DNA of 23,932 nucleotides from Leptospirales bacterium (GTDB taxonomy: Bacteria > Spirochaetota > Leptospiria > Turneriellales > JAOUFE01). This document shows positions 359 through 6,504 of the stretch, piece after piece; the stretch's first letter is position 1, and every line of letters begins with the position of its first letter. Location of the stretch: assembly GCA_040326155.1 (NCBI GenBank), contig JBEQLE010000068.1:1-23932 (forward strand), read 5' to 3'. The position numbers were made by a program, and so were the translations under genes. Below the pieces are notes generated by a model that was given only the letters and a program-made list of their open reading frames with translations, was not told the DNA's origin and ran no database searches.

Positions 359-667
359 GTGAGCGACAGCGAAGATATAGCTAAAATTCGGGTAACCATA
401 ATGGGTCGCGAGTATACATTACGCGGCGACCTTAACCCTGAATATATGGAAACGCTGGCCAAACGAGTAAATGATAAAATTGAAGACTTGAGAAGTGTCG
501 CCTCTGGAGTAGATGCATTGCAGCTTGCAATATTAGCCGCTTTGAATTTTGCCGACGAGGCAGAGCAATTAACCGGCGGGCAAAGCCCGACAGAGTTGGG
601 AGATATTGAAGAAAAAACCCGCAGGTTAATTTCGATGCTTGAAAAAGGAATCGTAGGCGACGTTTAA
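359..667 (+). CDS. zapA: Cell division protein ZapA
   Basis: 102 aa, GTG start. 'IRVTIMGREYTL', 'YMETLAKRVNDKI' and 'LAILAALNFADE' match the ZapA family pattern. Confidence 0.9.
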   Translation: MSDSEDIAKIRVTIMGREYTLRGDLNPEYMETLAKRVNDKIEDLRSVASGVDALQLAILAALNFADEAEQLTGGQSPTELGDIEEKTRRLISMLEKGIVGDV

Positions 668-3600
668 AAGAGCAGATTTGCTGAAAAGCCCAATTGGTAA
701 GAAAATACCTTTTGCATAATTTTCTCAGAAGCCGGGTTTCTGTGTATATCGTATACCAGAATTACAGAAAATAGACCATTTACGTTTTGGTGTAGATTTA
801 TATCGAACAGCTGGTTCATTATAAATTGATCAAGAGCCCTTCGATCGAGTAGGCTGCGAAGTTCATAATCGAAACGATTAAAGTCGGCAGAAAGACCGAT
901 ATTGTACTTCGGATTATGATCGAGTTTCATTTTCAACTTTTTCGTAATAAACTTTTTTAAACCCGGTAATTCTGTAAAATATTCTATACCATAATGATAT
1001 GTATAATCGATACGGTTCATTAGATAATTTAACGAATTCGAAATCGCATCATACATCTCACGATCTTCAATGGAACCTTGACGACGTATAAATGAATAAT
1101 GTTTATAGCTATGTCGGCCCATCGAAAAAGAGAGGGCAACACCATTTATAATTTTCTTTTTGTCGAACCATGTATAATTCAACGTTGTTTCTGGTGAAAT
1201 AATTGTCTCTTCAATATTTTCTGTTATATGTTTAAGAATATCATGATTAAAACCAATAGACCAATGCGAGCTGCTTTTTCCTTTATAAGTCCATGGCCAG
1301 ATTTTCATCAACTTGTTCATGTCCATGGTGCTAATGAATGAATATCCTAAGTCAAGATTTTGAATAGGCGTTCCATAAAGATTTTCCCGAAAAGCTATAT
1401 GGGCAATTCTTCCAATCGTTTGAAGCGTAACAGGTTTTGAAATTATCCAGCGGCTTGAGAACGAAATATTTTCTTTTAAAAATAGAGAATTGTTATATCT
1501 TTGGAATAGATCATTCGAATCGTTTTTTCCATCTACGGGGTTGTATTGCGAATTATATATATAGTCGCGACCCCGGGAATAATTTCTTTTGGAATTTTGC
1601 GGGCTTGTTAAAAAATACCAGAAGGGATACCGGAATAGATTGAAAGTACGGTCGGTAAGCAGAGGGGAAATTCGGTTAAACCCAAAACGATCTTGCGTTA
1701 AAGAAGACATCTTTGTAAAGGGAACACCTTTTTCTTCCAGAATAATTTCCCGGTCAAAATACAATAAAGATGATTCAAGAAACGAAATCTTTTTAAGAAC
1801 TTTTTCATGTAAGGGAAGGTAGAATGTGAATTTACTTAAGGTCGAGGGCTGCTTTAACCGTTGAAAGTTATCTTTAAGAACAAAGTCTTGTCGATCGTAA
1901 AAATTATCTTCTTTATAAACGAATGTCCAGGTTAAGATTGGAGCAAAAACCAGTAACTTCTTAAAAAATAAATTCAGCTTCATTTGAGTCAAACGGTTTT
2001 CATAACGAAAATTATCTGGCTCTGAAAAAAATGGTGTATAAAAAGATGAACTCGGTGTTGTCATATTTGCTTCATCGGTAAAGTTTTTCGAAACTAACCG
2101 CGACTGGGAATAAGATATAAAAGGTGTAAGTTTAAAAAATTTTCCAGAAAGGTTAAGCAGCGCCGAGCCGGTATCATTTTGCGTTTTCGCCTCATTTTGA
2201 TACTGCATTTTCTTTATATTATTTGTTTCGTGAATTCTTTTTTGCGCATTCACCTCCATGGACGCACCAGCATGTAATTCATAGTCGAGTTTTAATTTTC
2301 CAATTGGAATTTCAGTTTTTTGTAAAATTAGGTGAGGAGTATACTGTCGTTGAATATTACGATTGTATACTACAGTATCAGATGAGGAAGCATTTAAAAA
2401 TGTATCACTATAGTATCCGGTATTACTGAATTCATAGGATGCAATTACATTGGGTATAAATTTGTTTTTCGTTATAAAAGCATGGTTGGTATTGTGGTAA
2501 GTTTTTGTTCGTAACGCTGCTACACCATCTTCTGTTGATGTCACGTAAGGAGTGTCCGTTACATTCTGTCCATAAGTGTAACTGGCTTGCCAGAATGGAA
2601 GGACCCGCGTCGCTAAAGTGAAACGCTCTTCTTCTTCCATTTGCGAGAGATCATTATCACCGATGGAACGAAATTGATAGTTCTTTTTTCTCTTGTAATA
2701 TCCGGCTTGAAAGTTACCAAGAATTGGTTTTCCGTCGGCGGTTTTAATAAGAGGTTCTGTTATTCTAATACTGGAAGAGTATAAATAGGCATAATCAGAA
2801 ATAAGTTCTGGGTCCGATACAAATATATCATTTATCCAGCTTTCTCCTGTAAAAGATCCGGTTTCGGCAGGGTCTTTTTTTAAACCCACAGCCATGTAAT
2901 TTACCTGGCGCAAGTCTGGTTTACCGACTACAGAGTCTGGCTTTGACAATGCAAAACTGATACGATCCCATTCGGTTTTAAAGACAGGGTAGGTGTATTC
3001 ATAATAGTCGTTCTCGCTGCTTCCGACACGCAAGACCAGATAACCCAGCGAAGAATTATAATCACGATGGTTTACCCATAATTGAATAAGTCTATAATGT
3101 GAAATATCGAATTTTCCGGTAAAATTTCTGGTGGCGAACGCTGATTCATAAGTGGAGTCGAGGTTGTATTCCAGCTTTAATGTGCCCTCTAGTGTGTAAT
3201 GCAACTCTTCGATGGTTTTGGGACCGTGCAGGAGTTCATAACCTGCTGTCTTTTGAAGTAAGAACGACTCCTTGTAATACTCATCTTTATTGCTTTTGGT
3301 GTTAATGATAGAGGTACGAAGTACGCTTAAATCTGTTAATGAAGATTCGGTACTATCTAACCATTTTTTGGCATATTTGTTTCGCCATAAAGAACTTCCA
3401 AATTTAATACCATCCACCAACAATTTACCCTGACCTGCTTCGGCGCCGACGTTGGGTGCCACAATCAACCTCATGTTTTCAACATTGCGTAAAACACTTT
3501 TCTGGGAGGCGGTAAGATTTGACGGGTCAAAATAAAACCTTATTTTTGTCCAATCGCCAGGGTAGACTTTGTTGTCTGCGCCGGTGTCCATTGTAATATA

Positions 3601-6504
3601 CAATTGAGAAGGTTCGATACGAATGGCCCTTTCAGAAAGGTCCAGGCTTCCATTTTTATTTATATCTTCAGAATTTAAAATGCCGTTACCGATGGTGGAA
3701 GGGAAACCTGAAATATCGGGACCTCTGCCTACGTTTGTATTTGCCCCGGAGCACCCACTGGGCGAGTGTGCGTACCCGCGATCTTCTGTATTACCCGTAG
3801 CTCTCGCATAATCGATTACTCCATTTTTTTCTCCGTTGTCCCAGTTTTCGCCGGAGTCTAATATGTTATTATAATTCGTGTCGCCGTTTATATGGTCGAG
3901 CCCAATGTCTTCACTGTCCCAGATGTCGTCGTCATCTGCATCTTCCTTTAAACTGCCTACATCGAGCACTATATTGACACCGCTGGCTAAATTTCCATCA
4001 TTTATTAAGAGAACGCTGAATTCAACATATTCAACATAGGAAAAATCGCGCCCTGGTTTCGCAAAAGAATCGCTCATGGCAGAAACAAAAGGAGTGGTAT
4101 TTACCGGAGCCGCGCCGAAGTTGAAATCGAAAACCAGAGAGGTCTGTTTTCCCGTTTTACTGGTATCGACTTGTTTATTATACAAATGACCTTCTGCAAC
4201 ATTATAAGGACCGGCGACTTTAGAATAGGCGGGTGTCGCTTTTGCGCCAGCAGAAAAACTGAGTAACCCGCGCAGATAATTTTTCGGATCAAAATAGTGT
4301 TTATAATAAAGCGGAGCCCGGTTGCATTGTGTATAAGCCGATGCAGGAGGCAAAGAACCCGGAACCCAATACCCGGCAATTAAATTTGCATGGATAGACT
4401 CTTCGGAAGATTCCATGTCATCAATAATGGCGCGACCTTTCGTGTTCATATTATAATAACTTCGCGCATATTCCCCATAGGCTTCGAATTCTACCGGCAC
4501 TCGACTGTCAGACTTTGGGTTTAAAGCATGAACCAGCCGGGTCATACTTTTCTCATCCATAGAAATTCGAACGTCTCCGGCAGCTATGAACGTACTTCCC
4601 GGTTCTTCTCCTACATAGGGTGAGGCGTCAGGAAATATTTCACTTTCGTAAAAAACGGACCCGCCAAAGGTAAGATTTTCATTTGGATGATACTCAGTTC
4701 TACCGCCAACAATATAACTTTGTTCTCCTGCGCCAAAAGGTAAATAGTCATATTGTATTTCAATCTGAGTGGCTTCAGTAATTAAGGGGTTATCCGGGTT
4801 TAAAAACTGAAAGTAACCCGTTTGATAATCGATAGAATATAAAGCACGATCAACGGGCATACGATTTACTCGAACAGATTCACTCATAGGAACAATATTC
4901 ATATGCGAGAGCTGGAAACTTCGAATTTTACCTTCGAATTCAAGTTGTAAATACACATTGGAGTTTTCAGATATATATGGCGAGTGAGTCTCATTGTAAA
5001 TAGTGCGAACCAAATCGTCGGAGTATACATAACTTTTAGAAATATCTTTTTGTGAACGAAAAGGCTCTCTCTCTGAAAAATAAATAAAACCTTTCTGGTA
5101 ATCCACCTGATAAGCCGCTGAAAACTGAGAGCCATAATCTTCGAGATTTTTTGTAACAAAATTCATCTGAAACGTATGCTGATCGATATCCTCAACGCCG
5201 AGATTATACACACCTCTTATTTCATAAACGTCAAGGTTAACAACTCCGTCCGGTATAAACTCCTGGTCATCGGAACCTGTAAAAGAGGCCACCCCATCAT
5301 ATAAAATATCTTCGTGCATTTCATTTGCATATCTCAGGAAAGTCTCAATTTTATTATTCGATATTCGCGCACTGGGGTCTGTCGTAGTCGTCGACCCGTT
5401 ATTTCTGGTGTAGCGAACGAAAACCTTTGCTCCCGGTGGAAGAGGCTGTATAAACTTTATTCTGCCGGTTTTAAATTGTACGGTATATTCTCGGGTCTGC
5501 CTCATTTTATGGAAGTTTCCCAGGGTGTTTCCGGAAACAGTTTTTACAAACGCTTTTCGACTTGTATCGTTGGCAGGGTTACGATCATCCATATAAACTT
5601 CAAGAGAGCGCGGGTCTATAGAAACAGAACGAACGGTATATTGTGTGGAAGGACTCGTGAAAATATTTAAAGCGGATGAGTCTCCTCTTGTGTAAACCTG
5701 AGCTGATAAAGAAGACGGCGCCGAACTTAGATTGTCATAGTATAAAAATGGTTCTAACTGGTAAAATTTTCTGGCAGCGTATTCATAATCTGGTTTATAT
5801 AAAGTCTGGTTGCGGCGGTAACCATGAAAGGTCTCTAGATGGTGAACACTTTCAGCAACCGAACCAACAGTTTCAAACTCCCATTTTTTATGTTTCAGTT
5901 TTATATCGACGCCAAGCGCGGAGTAAGCGGAGCTATCGGGAAATACCAATTCGGAGGAGTTGATATTTAAATTTATTTTACCAAACGTAATTTCTTGAAC
6001 GAATTTGTCTTTGTCTTTTGATCTATATTGAATTGTTACTTCGTTATTATTGTAGGTGTCGTTTTGGTCATAATCGATATCAAAAAATACCTGTTCATCG
6101 ACCTCTCCGGATAGTTTAATTTTCATGTCCATGCCCGGTGCCAGACCTTCCAATATGGCGTTAGAACCGGGTACGGAGTATGCGTTCATTTGATCTTTTT
6201 TACCCAGAAAATGGGAGCGTCCATAAGAAAACGATAGATTATTTCCACCGTAAATTTTTATTTTACTTTCATCACTTCTATATTCTGAATTATTCTTATT
6301 TTCTTCTTTTTCGTTGTACTCTTTTTCTTCTTCGTCAAATTCACCTGGTTCAGGGTATACCAGCTCTTTTTCAGGCTGAAGAACAGATTCATTCCATAGA
6401 GCGGGTTCACTTTCTTTTTGTATTCCTGTTAAAGCATAGGTTACTACCGAATACGTTGTAATCGAAAAAATTAAAAAGTATTTCCAGGGGCTGAGTGAAA
6501 TCAT
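664..6504 (-). CDS. sprA: Very large outer-membrane beta-barrel protein, homologue of the SprA/Sov T9SS translocon
   Basis: 1946 aa with an N-terminal signal peptide and a C-terminal beta-signal ending in Phe (YQLGFSANLLF). SprA-like blocks occur in order: KLSGEV..DIDYDQN..EVTIQY..VQEITFGKINL; NIVPMSESVRV..YSIDYQTG; GEYA..AIIDDMESSE; NRAPLYY; DFSYVEYVEF; DVGSLKED..EDIGLD; SEDINKNGSLD; DISHYRLIQLW..LRVGSSENDYYEY..GKPDL..WINDIFVSD. The motif comparison is from memory of Bacteroidota SprA; no search was run. Confidence 0.7.
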   Translation of the reverse strand: MISLSPWKYFLIFSITTYSVVTYALTGIQKESEPALWNESVLQPEKELVYPEPGEFDEEEKEYNEKEENKNNSEYRSDESKIKIYGGNNLSFSYGRSHFLGKKDQMNAYSVPGSNAILEGLAPGMDMKIKLSGEVDEQVFFDIDYDQNDTYNNNEVTIQYRSKDKDKFVQEITFGKINLNINSSELVFPDSSAYSALGVDIKLKHKKWEFETVGSVAESVHHLETFHGYRRNQTLYKPDYEYAARKFYQLEPFLYYDNLSSAPSSLSAQVYTRGDSSALNIFTSPSTQYTVRSVSIDPRSLEVYMDDRNPANDTSRKAFVKTVSGNTLGNFHKMRQTREYTVQFKTGRIKFIQPLPPGAKVFVRYTRNNGSTTTTDPSARISNNKIETFLRYANEMHEDILYDGVASFTGSDDQEFIPDGVVNLDVYEIRGVYNLGVEDIDQHTFQMNFVTKNLEDYGSQFSAAYQVDYQKGFIYFSEREPFRSQKDISKSYVYSDDLVRTIYNETHSPYISENSNVYLQLEFEGKIRSFQLSHMNIVPMSESVRVNRMPVDRALYSIDYQTGYFQFLNPDNPLITEATQIEIQYDYLPFGAGEQSYIVGGRTEYHPNENLTFGGSVFYESEIFPDASPYVGEEPGSTFIAAGDVRISMDEKSMTRLVHALNPKSDSRVPVEFEAYGEYARSYYNMNTKGRAIIDDMESSEESIHANLIAGYWVPGSLPPASAYTQCNRAPLYYKHYFDPKNYLRGLLSFSAGAKATPAYSKVAGPYNVAEGHLYNKQVDTSKTGKQTSLVFDFNFGAAPVNTTPFVSAMSDSFAKPGRDFSYVEYVEFSVLLINDGNLASGVNIVLDVGSLKEDADDDDIWDSEDIGLDHINGDTNYNNILDSGENWDNGEKNGVIDYARATGNTEDRGYAHSPSGCSGANTNVGRGPDISGFPSTIGNGILNSEDINKNGSLDLSERAIRIEPSQLYITMDTGADNKVYPGDWTKIRFYFDPSNLTASQKSVLRNVENMRLIVAPNVGAEAGQGKLLVDGIKFGSSLWRNKYAKKWLDSTESSLTDLSVLRTSIINTKSNKDEYYKESFLLQKTAGYELLHGPKTIEELHYTLEGTLKLEYNLDSTYESAFATRNFTGKFDISHYRLIQLWVNHRDYNSSLGYLVLRVGSSENDYYEYTYPVFKTEWDRISFALSKPDSVVGKPDLRQVNYMAVGLKKDPAETGSFTGESWINDIFVSDPELISDYAYLYSSSIRITEPLIKTADGKPILGNFQAGYYKRKKNYQFRSIGDNDLSQMEEEERFTLATRVLPFWQASYTYGQNVTDTPYVTSTEDGVAALRTKTYHNTNHAFITKNKFIPNVIASYEFSNTGYYSDTFLNASSSDTVVYNRNIQRQYTPHLILQKTEIPIGKLKLDYELHAGASMEVNAQKRIHETNNIKKMQYQNEAKTQNDTGSALLNLSGKFFKLTPFISYSQSRLVSKNFTDEANMTTPSSSFYTPFFSEPDNFRYENRLTQMKLNLFFKKLLVFAPILTWTFVYKEDNFYDRQDFVLKDNFQRLKQPSTLSKFTFYLPLHEKVLKKISFLESSLLYFDREIILEEKGVPFTKMSSLTQDRFGFNRISPLLTDRTFNLFRYPFWYFLTSPQNSKRNYSRGRDYIYNSQYNPVDGKNDSNDLFQRYNNSLFLKENISFSSRWIISKPVTLQTIGRIAHIAFRENLYGTPIQNLDLGYSFISTMDMNKLMKIWPWTYKGKSSSHWSIGFNHDILKHITENIEETIISPETTLNYTWFDKKKIINGVALSFSMGRHSYKHYSFIRRQGSIEDREMYDAISNSLNYLMNRIDYTYHYGIEYFTELPGLKKFITKKLKMKLDHNPKYNIGLSADFNRFDYELRSLLDRRALDQFIMNQLFDINLHQNVNGLFSVILVYDIHRNPASEKIMQKVFSYQLGFSANLLF

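Follow-up and report, generated by a model that had tools for sequence, protein, structure and literature searches.

The stretch of DNA analysed here (the window) is the entire contig C136 (23.9 kb), from an assembly that totals 4.26 Mb in 171 contigs and is rated 94.7% complete, and window positions 664..6504 (reverse strand) hold an intact gene, P0001, for a giant SprA-like outer-membrane protein. Sov of Porphyromonas gingivalis is the outer-membrane translocon in the secretion system known as type IX (T9SS); SprA is its counterpart in Flavobacterium johnsoniae. The product of 664..6504 is a remote but real homologue of SprA/Sov. The original prediction had described an undecayed open reading frame (ORF) of 1946 codons, and the ORF list and translation agree: the frame starts with ATG, encodes 1946 aa and has no internal stop. 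Codons 1-27 (6424..6504, reverse strand; MISLSPWKYFLIFSITTYSVVTYALTG) specify an N-terminal hydrophobic stretch (residues ∼8-25) that we read from its sequence as a putative Sec signal peptide, as had been claimed, and the relatives of the protein also start with one such segment. The protein ends in ...SANLLF, which bears out the claimed terminal Phe; among 38 extracted relatives the last residue is F in 33, I in 4 and L in 1. No clear Shine-Dalgarno sequence was seen before the ATG, and promoter-like and terminator-like sites around the gene showed no excess over shuffled sequences (23 vs 22.2 and 4 vs 5.6, respectively).

Homology to SprA was evident from several profile comparisons. The NCBIfam Sov/SprA equivalog model TIGR04189 matched the protein in five collinear stretches with E = 9.8e-39 and 132.5 bits, where the curated cut-off is 200 bits. 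A profile of 21 family sequences matched the solved F. johnsoniae SprA (6h3i_A/6h3j_A, 2403 aa) with E = 1.5e-26 over three collinear stretches (family profile/SprA residues 146-268/167-287, 496-891/609-1046 and 974-1271/1159-1524). Alignment of the family to 10 canonical SprAs (named by source as Zixibacteria, Calditrichaeota, Gemmatimonadota and others) using hhalign gave a probability of 100 with E = 1.7e-69; the 1098 aligned columns are 19% identical. A PDB search with the single sequence (phmmer) or with a 4-sequence profile retrieved no SprA, and a profile of the C-terminal 767 residues had no HMMER similarity to SprA. Of the family models that had been proposed as a check, TIGR04189 recognized the protein, at a score below its cut-off, and the Pfam model SprA_N (PF14349) did not; SprA_N is found on only 12-20% of the members in the nearest ESM Atlas clusters.

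The similarity can be placed on the gene with six-frame matches of the SprA hidden Markov model (HMM), all on the reverse strand. The best-conserved block (4339..5127, model positions 521-791, E = 9.2e-25) contains YSIDYQTG, pairs protein residues 461-721 with profile positions 522-790 and is aligned to SprA 609-1046. Block 1 (5740..6258, model positions 90-261, E = 8.1e-9) contains DIDYDQN...VQEITFGKINL, and there the family profile aligns to SprA residues 167-287; block 3 (2785..2934, model positions 1392-1442, E = 0.0017) contains WINDIFVSD and lies inside the span aligned by hhalign. These three motifs and the other blocks that had been quoted, IIDDMESS, SEDINKN and RVGSSENDYYEY, are all present in the translation, and in the part of the profile alignment that was listed five of the six fall in stretches aligned to the solved F. 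johnsoniae SprA. The SprA counterparts in the five-block alignment (...nanYDtqs...iqkveVGnvsm, YSVDYQLG, VDDFEGS, vEDINRDn and IRFGNDfTQNFYQvE) are near to the SprA strings that the original prediction had given.

Because the C-terminal ∼770 residues have no sequence similarity to SprA, the chain was modelled with AlphaFold as two overlapping parts, using 38-sequence alignments. The model of residues 70-1240 (2785..6297, reverse strand; m1d07264e2b92) had a mean predicted local distance difference test score (pLDDT) of 81.6 and a predicted template modelling score (pTM) of 0.58. Its four top Foldseek matches were SprA chains (E = 2.3e-46 to 2.3e-31, TMq 0.43-0.49), and the next match was far behind (E = 2.9e-7, TMq 0.08). 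The model of residues 1180-1946 (667..2967, reverse strand; m09a395592c8c; pLDDT 85.7, pTM 0.77) has ∼26 long strands and ends in the ...NLLF beta-signal. SprA chains were again its four top matches (E = 1.6e-8 to 5.9e-6, TMq 0.44-0.46), followed by TonB-dependent transporters with TMq of 0.22-0.29. VIA-align, used solely for the collinear range of this C-terminal part, superposed 559 residues on 6h3i_A (model 55-767 on SprA 1515-2401) with Z = 13.3 and a root mean square deviation (rmsd) of 7.1 Å. The N-terminal part adds ∼13 candidate strands to the ∼26 of the C-terminal part, counted on two separate partial models; SprA itself is a single closed 36-strand barrel that has an extracellular cap, a lateral opening and a plug site on the periplasmic side. 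The models show the SprA fold, with N-terminal strands carrying inserted, cap-type domains and a C-terminal many-stranded barrel. Homology to SprA is therefore well supported along the chain, by sequence profiles together with the fold in the N-terminal two thirds and by the fold only in the C-terminal ∼26-strand barrel.

The titles of related loci and synteny with a Turneriellaceae locus place the host among the spirochaetes, in the order to which Turneriella belongs; the claim of a spirochaete-like, non-Bacteroidota host thus held. A pattern scan of species-representative genomes returned eight related loci with full-length relatives (27-39% identical), titled Turneriellaceae, Turneriella parva, Leptospiraceae (2), Spirochaetia (2), Spirochaetes and, in one case, a 'Caldithrix sp.' metagenome-assembled genome (MAG). 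Of the 20 window ORFs of ≥70 aa, 13 recur as homologues in the Turneriellaceae MAG locus L009, and their order is kept. The 'Caldithrix sp.' locus (L013) has nearly the gene order of a locus titled Turneriella (L014), with the SprA-like gene 35% identical, and because of this common gene order its label is probably wrong. These data bear on the idea that the gene is foreign, acquired by recent horizontal transfer from a bacterium of the Fibrobacteres-Chlorobi-Bacteroidetes group or brought in on a mis-binned contig. That idea could draw on the 'Caldithrix' title and on a 2026 review (PMC13721041) that confines T9SS to one phylum, the system being described in print only for Bacteroidota and allies. 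The window is, however, syntenic with L009 and even in composition (GC 0.34-0.46 per kb throughout), no mobile-element genes were seen in it, in line with what had been noted, the identity to canonical SprA is only 19%, and the family follows the phylum in its distribution. We consider contamination or a recent transfer unlikely and give a foreign origin very little credence.

The gene is not confined to this genome and is in fact widespread in the phylum. SprA-like matches (E≤1e-5) occurred in 138 of 401 sampled genomes of the phylum, representing 80 of 153 genera, with the best matches in genomes of the same order and the next best in other families. Among the matches listed, all but one were in frames free of internal stops (the exception, in G391, has one TGA); uninterrupted frames were ∼1,780-2,050 aa long, and shorter ones lay mostly at contig ends. 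The gene is found in nearly every genome of many families and is absent from or rare in others: 0 of 75 genomes of 3.4-4.7 Mb in a family of the same class (f5), which we infer to be the Leptospira family, 0 of 50 in f19 and 1 of 38 in f17. We scanned 29 spirochaete proteins with TIGR04189, namely the window protein, 25 of the 38 extracted relatives (20 matched and five did not) and three further proteins (78-115 bits): 24 scored 38-174 bits, five had no match and none exceeded the cut-off. SprAs of the Zixibacteria and Gemmatimonadota type (1,983-2,142 aa) scored 480-715 bits. Because all spirochaete scores lie below the cut-off and are separated from these by a clear gap rather than a continuum, the spirochaete proteins form a separate subfamily that curated SprA models do not recognize. 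In public records the homologues are mostly named 'hypothetical proteins'.

We asked which T9SS components accompany the gene in its own genome. A scan with TIGR04183, the model for type A C-terminal domains (CTDs), yielded two matches of 19 bits (cut-off 23). With an HMM built from 13 spirochaete CTDs, C-terminal-domain matches were confined to P0130, a CTD-only protein of 130 aa (C105:19071-19463, reverse strand; E = 4.5e-9), and P0129, a second CTD-like protein of 253 aa (C81:29814-30575, reverse strand; E = 2.8e-11); the same HMM also matches an OmpA-type protein of 900 aa, at an internal immunoglobulin (Ig) domain. P0129 and P0130 each carry a signal peptide, and the CTD motifs PNPF, IYD..G, W.G...G..V..GxY and K....R are common to the two. 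The best curated match of P0130 was the PorZ CTD region (35.3 bits), and P0129 scored 24.1 bits against the PorU CTD region. The names that NCBI gives to P0130 relatives are 'FlgD immunoglobulin-like domain containing protein', 'T9SS type A sorting domain-containing protein' and 'hypothetical protein', so that public annotation already hints at T9SS-type tails in spirochaete MAGs.

Five bp after P0130, on the same strand, starts the ORF of a PorV-like barrel of 341 aa (C105:18041-19066, reverse strand) that ends in ...LNFVF and was matched over its full length by an HMM from five spirochaete PorV-like proteins (E = 1.9e-14); the pair occupies C105:18041-19463. Relatives of this barrel were found in 22 of 36 genomes chosen from the 138 SprA-like-positive ones by completeness and by spread over families. 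In 14 of the 16 loci returned, the ORF directly upstream of the barrel is CTD-only, and of the two misses one is at a contig end and the other has no match. These CTD-only ORFs encode 116-154 aa including the signal peptide, with no passenger domain. A profile of the small CTD-only proteins retrieved 308 proteins at E≤1e-5, and among the 120 listed every taxon-labelled source was spirochaetal, one being given only as '[bacterium]'. The PorV equivalog model NF033710 had no match in the own genome and exceeded its cut-off in 0 of the 36 chosen genomes.

Prediction of a complex between barrel residues 22-341 and P0130 residues 32-130 gave 0.91 in three runs vs 0.00 for the best of three controls, a mark that 116 out of 157 solved pairs attain, as do 2 out of 215 mismatched ones. 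In the predicted complex the partner has a pLDDT of 90, the contacts agree to ≥92% and the conserved CTD motifs face the barrel. This pass may only reflect likeness to the complex of PorV with a CTD that has already been solved (8GL6).

Other outer-membrane candidates were seen in the same genome. A 1208-aa protein encoded 18 bp downstream of P0129 (C81:26170-29796, reverse strand; L087:674-4297) has a weakly PorV/PorQ-like N-terminal region of 300 residues (near-full-length match of 22.8 bits, plus a PorV-type N-terminal motif read by eye) followed by tetratricopeptide (TPR) repeats. The custom PorV-like HMMs did not match this protein; it may, as a lead only, combine a PorV-like barrel with a long arm in the periplasm. 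P0131, a FadL/PorV-like barrel of 424 aa, has a PorV-like match at its N-terminus only and scores 32.5 bits on NF033709, the PorV/PorQ family model. Upstream of and divergent from the P0130/barrel pair lie five genes (C105:19633-24713, forward strand; L088:2634-7711), three of them encoding paralogues of ∼355-370 aa with beta-signal-like ends (...IKF/...GKF) and weak LpoB/CsgG-type matches; they may represent another outer-membrane module. When the C-terminal 110 residues of 3,469 crude ORFs from the genome were clustered de novo by BLAST, no shared sorting tail emerged; the clusters held ordinary domains of enzymes and signalling proteins and a single paralogue family that is unexplained. Nine paralogous proteins of the genome (∼1,440-1,550 aa, one cut by a contig end) have signal-like N-terminal segments and the C-terminus ...NNFFxSPL(I/V/L)ERNYx(I/V)(K/R)xRL.., and the one member scanned had no Pfam match. 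They lie at C103:9984-14294, C117:9841-14448, C139:711-5138, C139:5154-9578, C147:6409-11067, C59:1-1776, C77:49439-53944, C77:53962-58452 and C94:90122-94765, which includes two tandem pairs.

CTD and PorV-type genes accompany the SprA-like gene across the phylum. TIGR04183 matched 33 of the 36 chosen genomes at E≤0.01 and exceeded its cut-off in 26. The numbers of matches reached 53 in G004, 39 in G034 and 26 in G046, and in these genomes there were 39, 36 and 30 sub-cut-off PorV matches, respectively, in ORFs of ∼300-330 aa that often stand directly beside a CTD-bearing ORF. The C-termini of the cargo ORFs resemble classic type A CTDs (...G(V/I/L)Y......K..(V/I/L)x(K/R)). When all 401 genomes were scored for a CTD (E≤1e-4) and the SprA-like gene, 78 had both, 34 only the CTD, 60 only the SprA-like gene and 229 neither. 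Sixteen of the 18 genomes with ≥5 CTD matches carry the SprA-like gene, a count that rose to 17 after a more sensitive profile found a fragment in G079; the remaining genome, G017 (first search only), is 73% complete. NF033709 matched 188 of the 401 genomes at E≤1e-10 and exceeded its 90-bit cut-off in 102. Of these 102 genomes, 98 carry the SprA-like gene, vs only 4 NF033709-positive genomes among the 263 without it; two of the four exceptions have SprA-like fragments and the other two (94% and 89% complete) have none. Giant CTD genes were also encountered: L082 (G016:C1:1436000-1449000) and L083 (G191:C8:9000-26000) hold tandem genes of ∼2,200-2,600 aa whose products terminate in type A CTDs; in L083 these are followed by a gene for a PorV-like barrel of 545 aa that is extended at its C-terminus, and CTD-bearing ORFs of 2,550-2,650 aa are present in at least nine genomes.

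The energizing and processing components of the T9SS were sought in the same way. The original prediction had noted that the window lacks gld/por motor genes, and family scans of the window proteins agreed. GldL, GldM and GldN had no match in the own genome. GldM exceeded the cut-off in 0 of the 36 chosen genomes with both TIGR03517 and Pfam GldM_1st (best scores 23.8 and 22.3 bits), and GldL and GldN each did so in 0 of 18 genomes (10 of the 36 chosen ones and 8 further CTD-rich genomes of the phylum sample), including genomes with 26-53 CTD genes; weak GldL matches of 17-24 bits were seen in 3 of the 18. Three GldK matches in the own genome (30-42 bits, cut-off 350) were rejected as generic FGE-sulfatase domains, since the Bacillus subtilis, Caulobacter and Methanosarcina controls match too. 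The PorU sortase model NF033707 (cut-off 420 bits) was exceeded in 0 of 36 genomes, and nearly all of its matches fell on model positions 950-1095, which are the CTD of PorU itself; of three own-genome matches, the two listed (17.7 and 23.2 bits) cover positions 961-1086 and 991-1081. The catalytic part was matched in 2 of the 36 genomes, and the own genome is not one of them. The genome-wide search that had been proposed for T9SS partners accordingly had a mixed outcome, with CTD-like proteins and a PorV-like barrel found and GldL, GldM, GldN, the PorV equivalog and the PorU catalytic part not found. Judged by these profile searches, the evidence on the GldKLMN/PorKLMN motor-ring leans towards absence.

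An alternative view of these negatives is that the SprA-like protein serves a complete T9SS whose motor (GldL/M), ring (GldK/N) and PorU/Z are too divergent for models trained on Bacteroidota. The spirochaete SprA, PorV and CTD parts score mostly under their curated cut-offs, and the motor could be alike; moreover, the GldL, GldM and GldN searches had no positive control, nothing being over cut-off in any genome or control, and the weak GldK-type and GldL matches might be taken as traces of such a motor. The GldK-type matches are generic, however, GldM was missed by two independent models, GldL and GldN were below cut-off even in the genomes richest in CTD genes, and the PorU catalytic part was matched in only 2 of 36 genomes, the own genome not among them. 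We therefore regard a complete but unrecognized T9SS as improbable.

On the strength of these results, our favoured reading, which we judge to be right somewhat more often than wrong on evidence of this kind, is that 664..6504 encodes the outer-membrane pore of a stripped-down T9SS-like export route of spirochaetes that operates without a motor. The original prediction had floated a minimal T9SS-like route, and the idea gained support from the CTD-only/PorV-like pair conserved across families, the second CTD-like protein and the PorV/PorQ co-occurrence in the 401 genomes. In this route, Sec-exported proteins with an Ig-like C-terminal domain would fold in the periplasm and enter the SprA-like barrel. 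A PorV-like barrel would then grip the CTD and take the cargo out through the side of the SprA-like barrel, after which the cargo would be released or held on the cell surface. Transport would proceed with neither a GldKLMN/PorKLMN motor-ring nor a PorU sortase, and candidate energy sources would be another transducer of the proton-motive force or binding and folding outside. According to the 2026 review (PMC13721041), how motor energy is transferred from the inner membrane to the SprA pore is an open question. The recognizable load in the own genome consists of two short CTD proteins only. Because this load is so small, the pore may mainly install barrel-plus-CTD pairs, or it may carry cargo with an unseen signal, and the CTD-only protein with its barrel may be a fixed machine part rather than cargo.

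The surroundings of the gene offer a different picture. The other genes of the window are housekeeping genes by family scans. They include those for a class A penicillin-binding protein, dihydroorotate dehydrogenase, HisG, a TPR protein, HisD, peroxiredoxin, a GT4 glycosyltransferase, SppA, Hfq, MiaA, Gmk and ClpB, as well as a ZapB-like fragment and ZapA, convergent to the SprA-like gene with a stop that overlaps the end of the latter. Adjacent to it are P0008 (6630..7247, forward strand), a divergent gene for a 205-aa secreted protein that has a homologue adjoining the SprA-like gene in 5 of 8 related loci, and P0009 (7244..7570, reverse strand), for a 108-aa putative lipoprotein (...LTGSC) with a homologue near the SprA-like gene in 7 of 8. 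Neither has a Pfam or NCBIfam match, and they are conserved as neighbours only within the window's order; they could be accessory parts or reflect mere synteny. Loci of this order have ZapA/ZapB downstream and two small secreted proteins upstream.

To compare neighbourhoods more broadly, we used 26 loci, made up of the window, five of the eight related loci and 20 others chosen for family spread. In 7 loci the immediate upstream neighbour, on the same strand, is a gene for an M23 peptidase, and 4 further loci have such a gene in the vicinity; in the seven (L016, L055, L056, L058, L060, L061 and L062, from several families) it encodes ∼320-410 aa and lies 44-192 bp upstream of the SprA-like gene. 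A DHH phosphoesterase gene is convergent downstream in 6 loci. This arrangement may represent an operon that ties the pore to remodelling of the cell wall. A gene for a class A penicillin-binding protein, with transglycosylase and transpeptidase domains, directly precedes the SprA-like gene in one locus and lies one gene away from it in the window and L009; a gene for an Omp85 protein directly precedes it in one locus. Convergent ZapA genes stand downstream in the window and in 3 of the 26 loci, and in the related-locus set they do so in 6 of 8. Genes for MlaD and LolA are also found in the vicinity.

These arrangements are the chief support for a second alternative, namely that the SprA-like barrel has another job, such as envelope biogenesis or the uptake or release of large substrates, and that the CTD and PorV-like genes form an independent system with the same range. 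The neighbours are envelope and division genes (M23 peptidase, penicillin-binding protein, Omp85, ZapA, MlaD, LolA), which favours a housekeeping envelope gene. In the 26 loci, the ∼7 kb around the SprA-like gene are free of CTD and PorV-like genes, and in the own genome, where the pore gene stands alone among housekeeping genes, the CTD and PorV-like genes sit on other contigs. A genome of the same order, G399 (single contig, 99% complete), retains the CTD-only plus barrel pair (L092, G399:C1:1425659-1429687) and has no SprA-like gene, even by the 21-sequence profile, and the visible cargo of the own genome is just two tiny CTD proteins. Set against this are the co-occurrence with PorV/PorQ (98 of 102 genomes) and with abundant CTDs (17 of 18), and the fact that the only experimentally known role of the SprA fold, judging by PDB titles, is protein translocation with PorV. 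Bacteroidota sprA is likewise not known to cluster with cargo genes, which also weighs against another job. We consider this alternative unlikely, if the likeliest of the three.

Besides the neighbourhood and G399, several results weigh against the export-pore reading that we favour. The protein is below the TIGR04189 cut-off (132.5 of 200 bits) and its Pfam scan returned no family at E≤1, SprA_N included. By VIA-align Z, 26 other barrels (TonB-dependent transporters and others, Z up to 16.3) rank above SprA (rank 27), with shorter alignments and rmsd values of 12-14 Å. P0129 and P0130 score just under the TIGR04183 cut-off of 23 bits as proteins (22.3 and 19.1 bits) and about equally well on FlgD Ig models, and the 341-aa barrel attains 20.7 bits on NF033709, far from the cut-off of 90. 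The motor negatives, being uncontrolled, leave room for divergent motors, and the co-occurrence counts cover related, not independent, genomes. Sixty of the 138 SprA-like-positive genomes lack a TIGR04183 match at E≤1e-4 and 34 SprA-negative genomes have one. Sub-cut-off PorV/PorQ matches are present in 36 of 50 genomes of f19, a family with zero SprA-like genes, and NF033709 is over cut-off in Bacteroides thetaiotaomicron, which is not known to have a T9SS; PorV/PorQ-family barrels are therefore not tied to the SprA-like pore alone.

A bolder and more tentative proposal, about which we are rather doubtful, is that the Spirochaetota harbour an old, vertically inherited, motor-less SprA/PorV/CTD pathway. 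The T9SS core would then be older and wider than the Bacteroidota system, the motor would be a later addition, and the pair of CTD-only protein and barrel would serve the machine as a fixed subunit (a plug or adaptor) and not as cargo. Full-text searches, which did not extend to supplements, found no literature on a spirochaete SprA or T9SS. In the accessible part of the TXSScan paper no T9SS is reported in spirochaetes; the T9SS described in the available text of PMC12483993 belongs to a Bacteroidales symbiont; and a Brachyspira barrel carries the UniProt label 'PorV/PorQ family' in the portion seen of 10.1101/2025.01.03.631275.

A spirochaete-wide SprA family with PorV-type barrels and CTD genes, and with no detectable motor or sortase, would widen the range of the T9SS. 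Natural 'motor-less' translocons would allow the minimal requirements of transport to be probed. Protein export across the spirochaete outer membrane is poorly understood, and the system described here would be a candidate route for it. In addition, the curated models TIGR04189 and SprA_N miss a phylum's worth of homologues.

Compared with known systems, the closest structural reference is SprA of F. johnsoniae (PDB 6H3I, 6H3J, 8GL6 and 8GL8). The two have in common a giant single-chain outer-membrane protein with collinear sequence blocks and, according to the models, a multi-domain N-terminal fold and a C-terminal many-stranded barrel. They differ in that identity is only ∼15% in structural alignments and that the spirochaete protein is under the TIGR04189 cut-off and lacks SprA_N. 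At 1946 aa it has ∼455 residues fewer than the 2403 of F. johnsoniae SprA, roughly 200 of them from the C-terminal barrel part. The earlier remark that the protein is shorter than canonical SprA thus holds for this comparison, but the length is not unusual: Zixibacteria and Calditrichaeota SprAs of ∼1,900-2,060 aa pass the cut-off. The SprAs of Zixibacteria, Calditrichaeota and Gemmatimonadota MAGs, the nearest non-spirochaete relatives found (E = 2.6e-21 to 3.1e-5), are similar in length (∼1,900-2,140 aa) and differ in scoring 480-715 bits on TIGR04189 and in mostly possessing PF14349. At the level of the system, the spirochaete genome differs from Bacteroidota with a T9SS in having no detected GldKLMN, PorU or PorV equivalog, and it resembles F. 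johnsoniae in that the SprA-like gene co-occurs with PorV-type barrels and CTD-tagged proteins. In the T9SS, CTDs pair with particular barrels: PorV with the CTD of cargo or of PorU, PorQ with the CTD of PorZ, and type B CTDs with adjacent PorP/SprF-like barrels. The spirochaete CTD-only proteins differ from these in lacking a passenger, and the own barrel is far under the PorV/PorQ cut-off; as in the known pairs, a CTD gene abuts a PorV-like barrel gene, both here and in 14 of 16 related loci.

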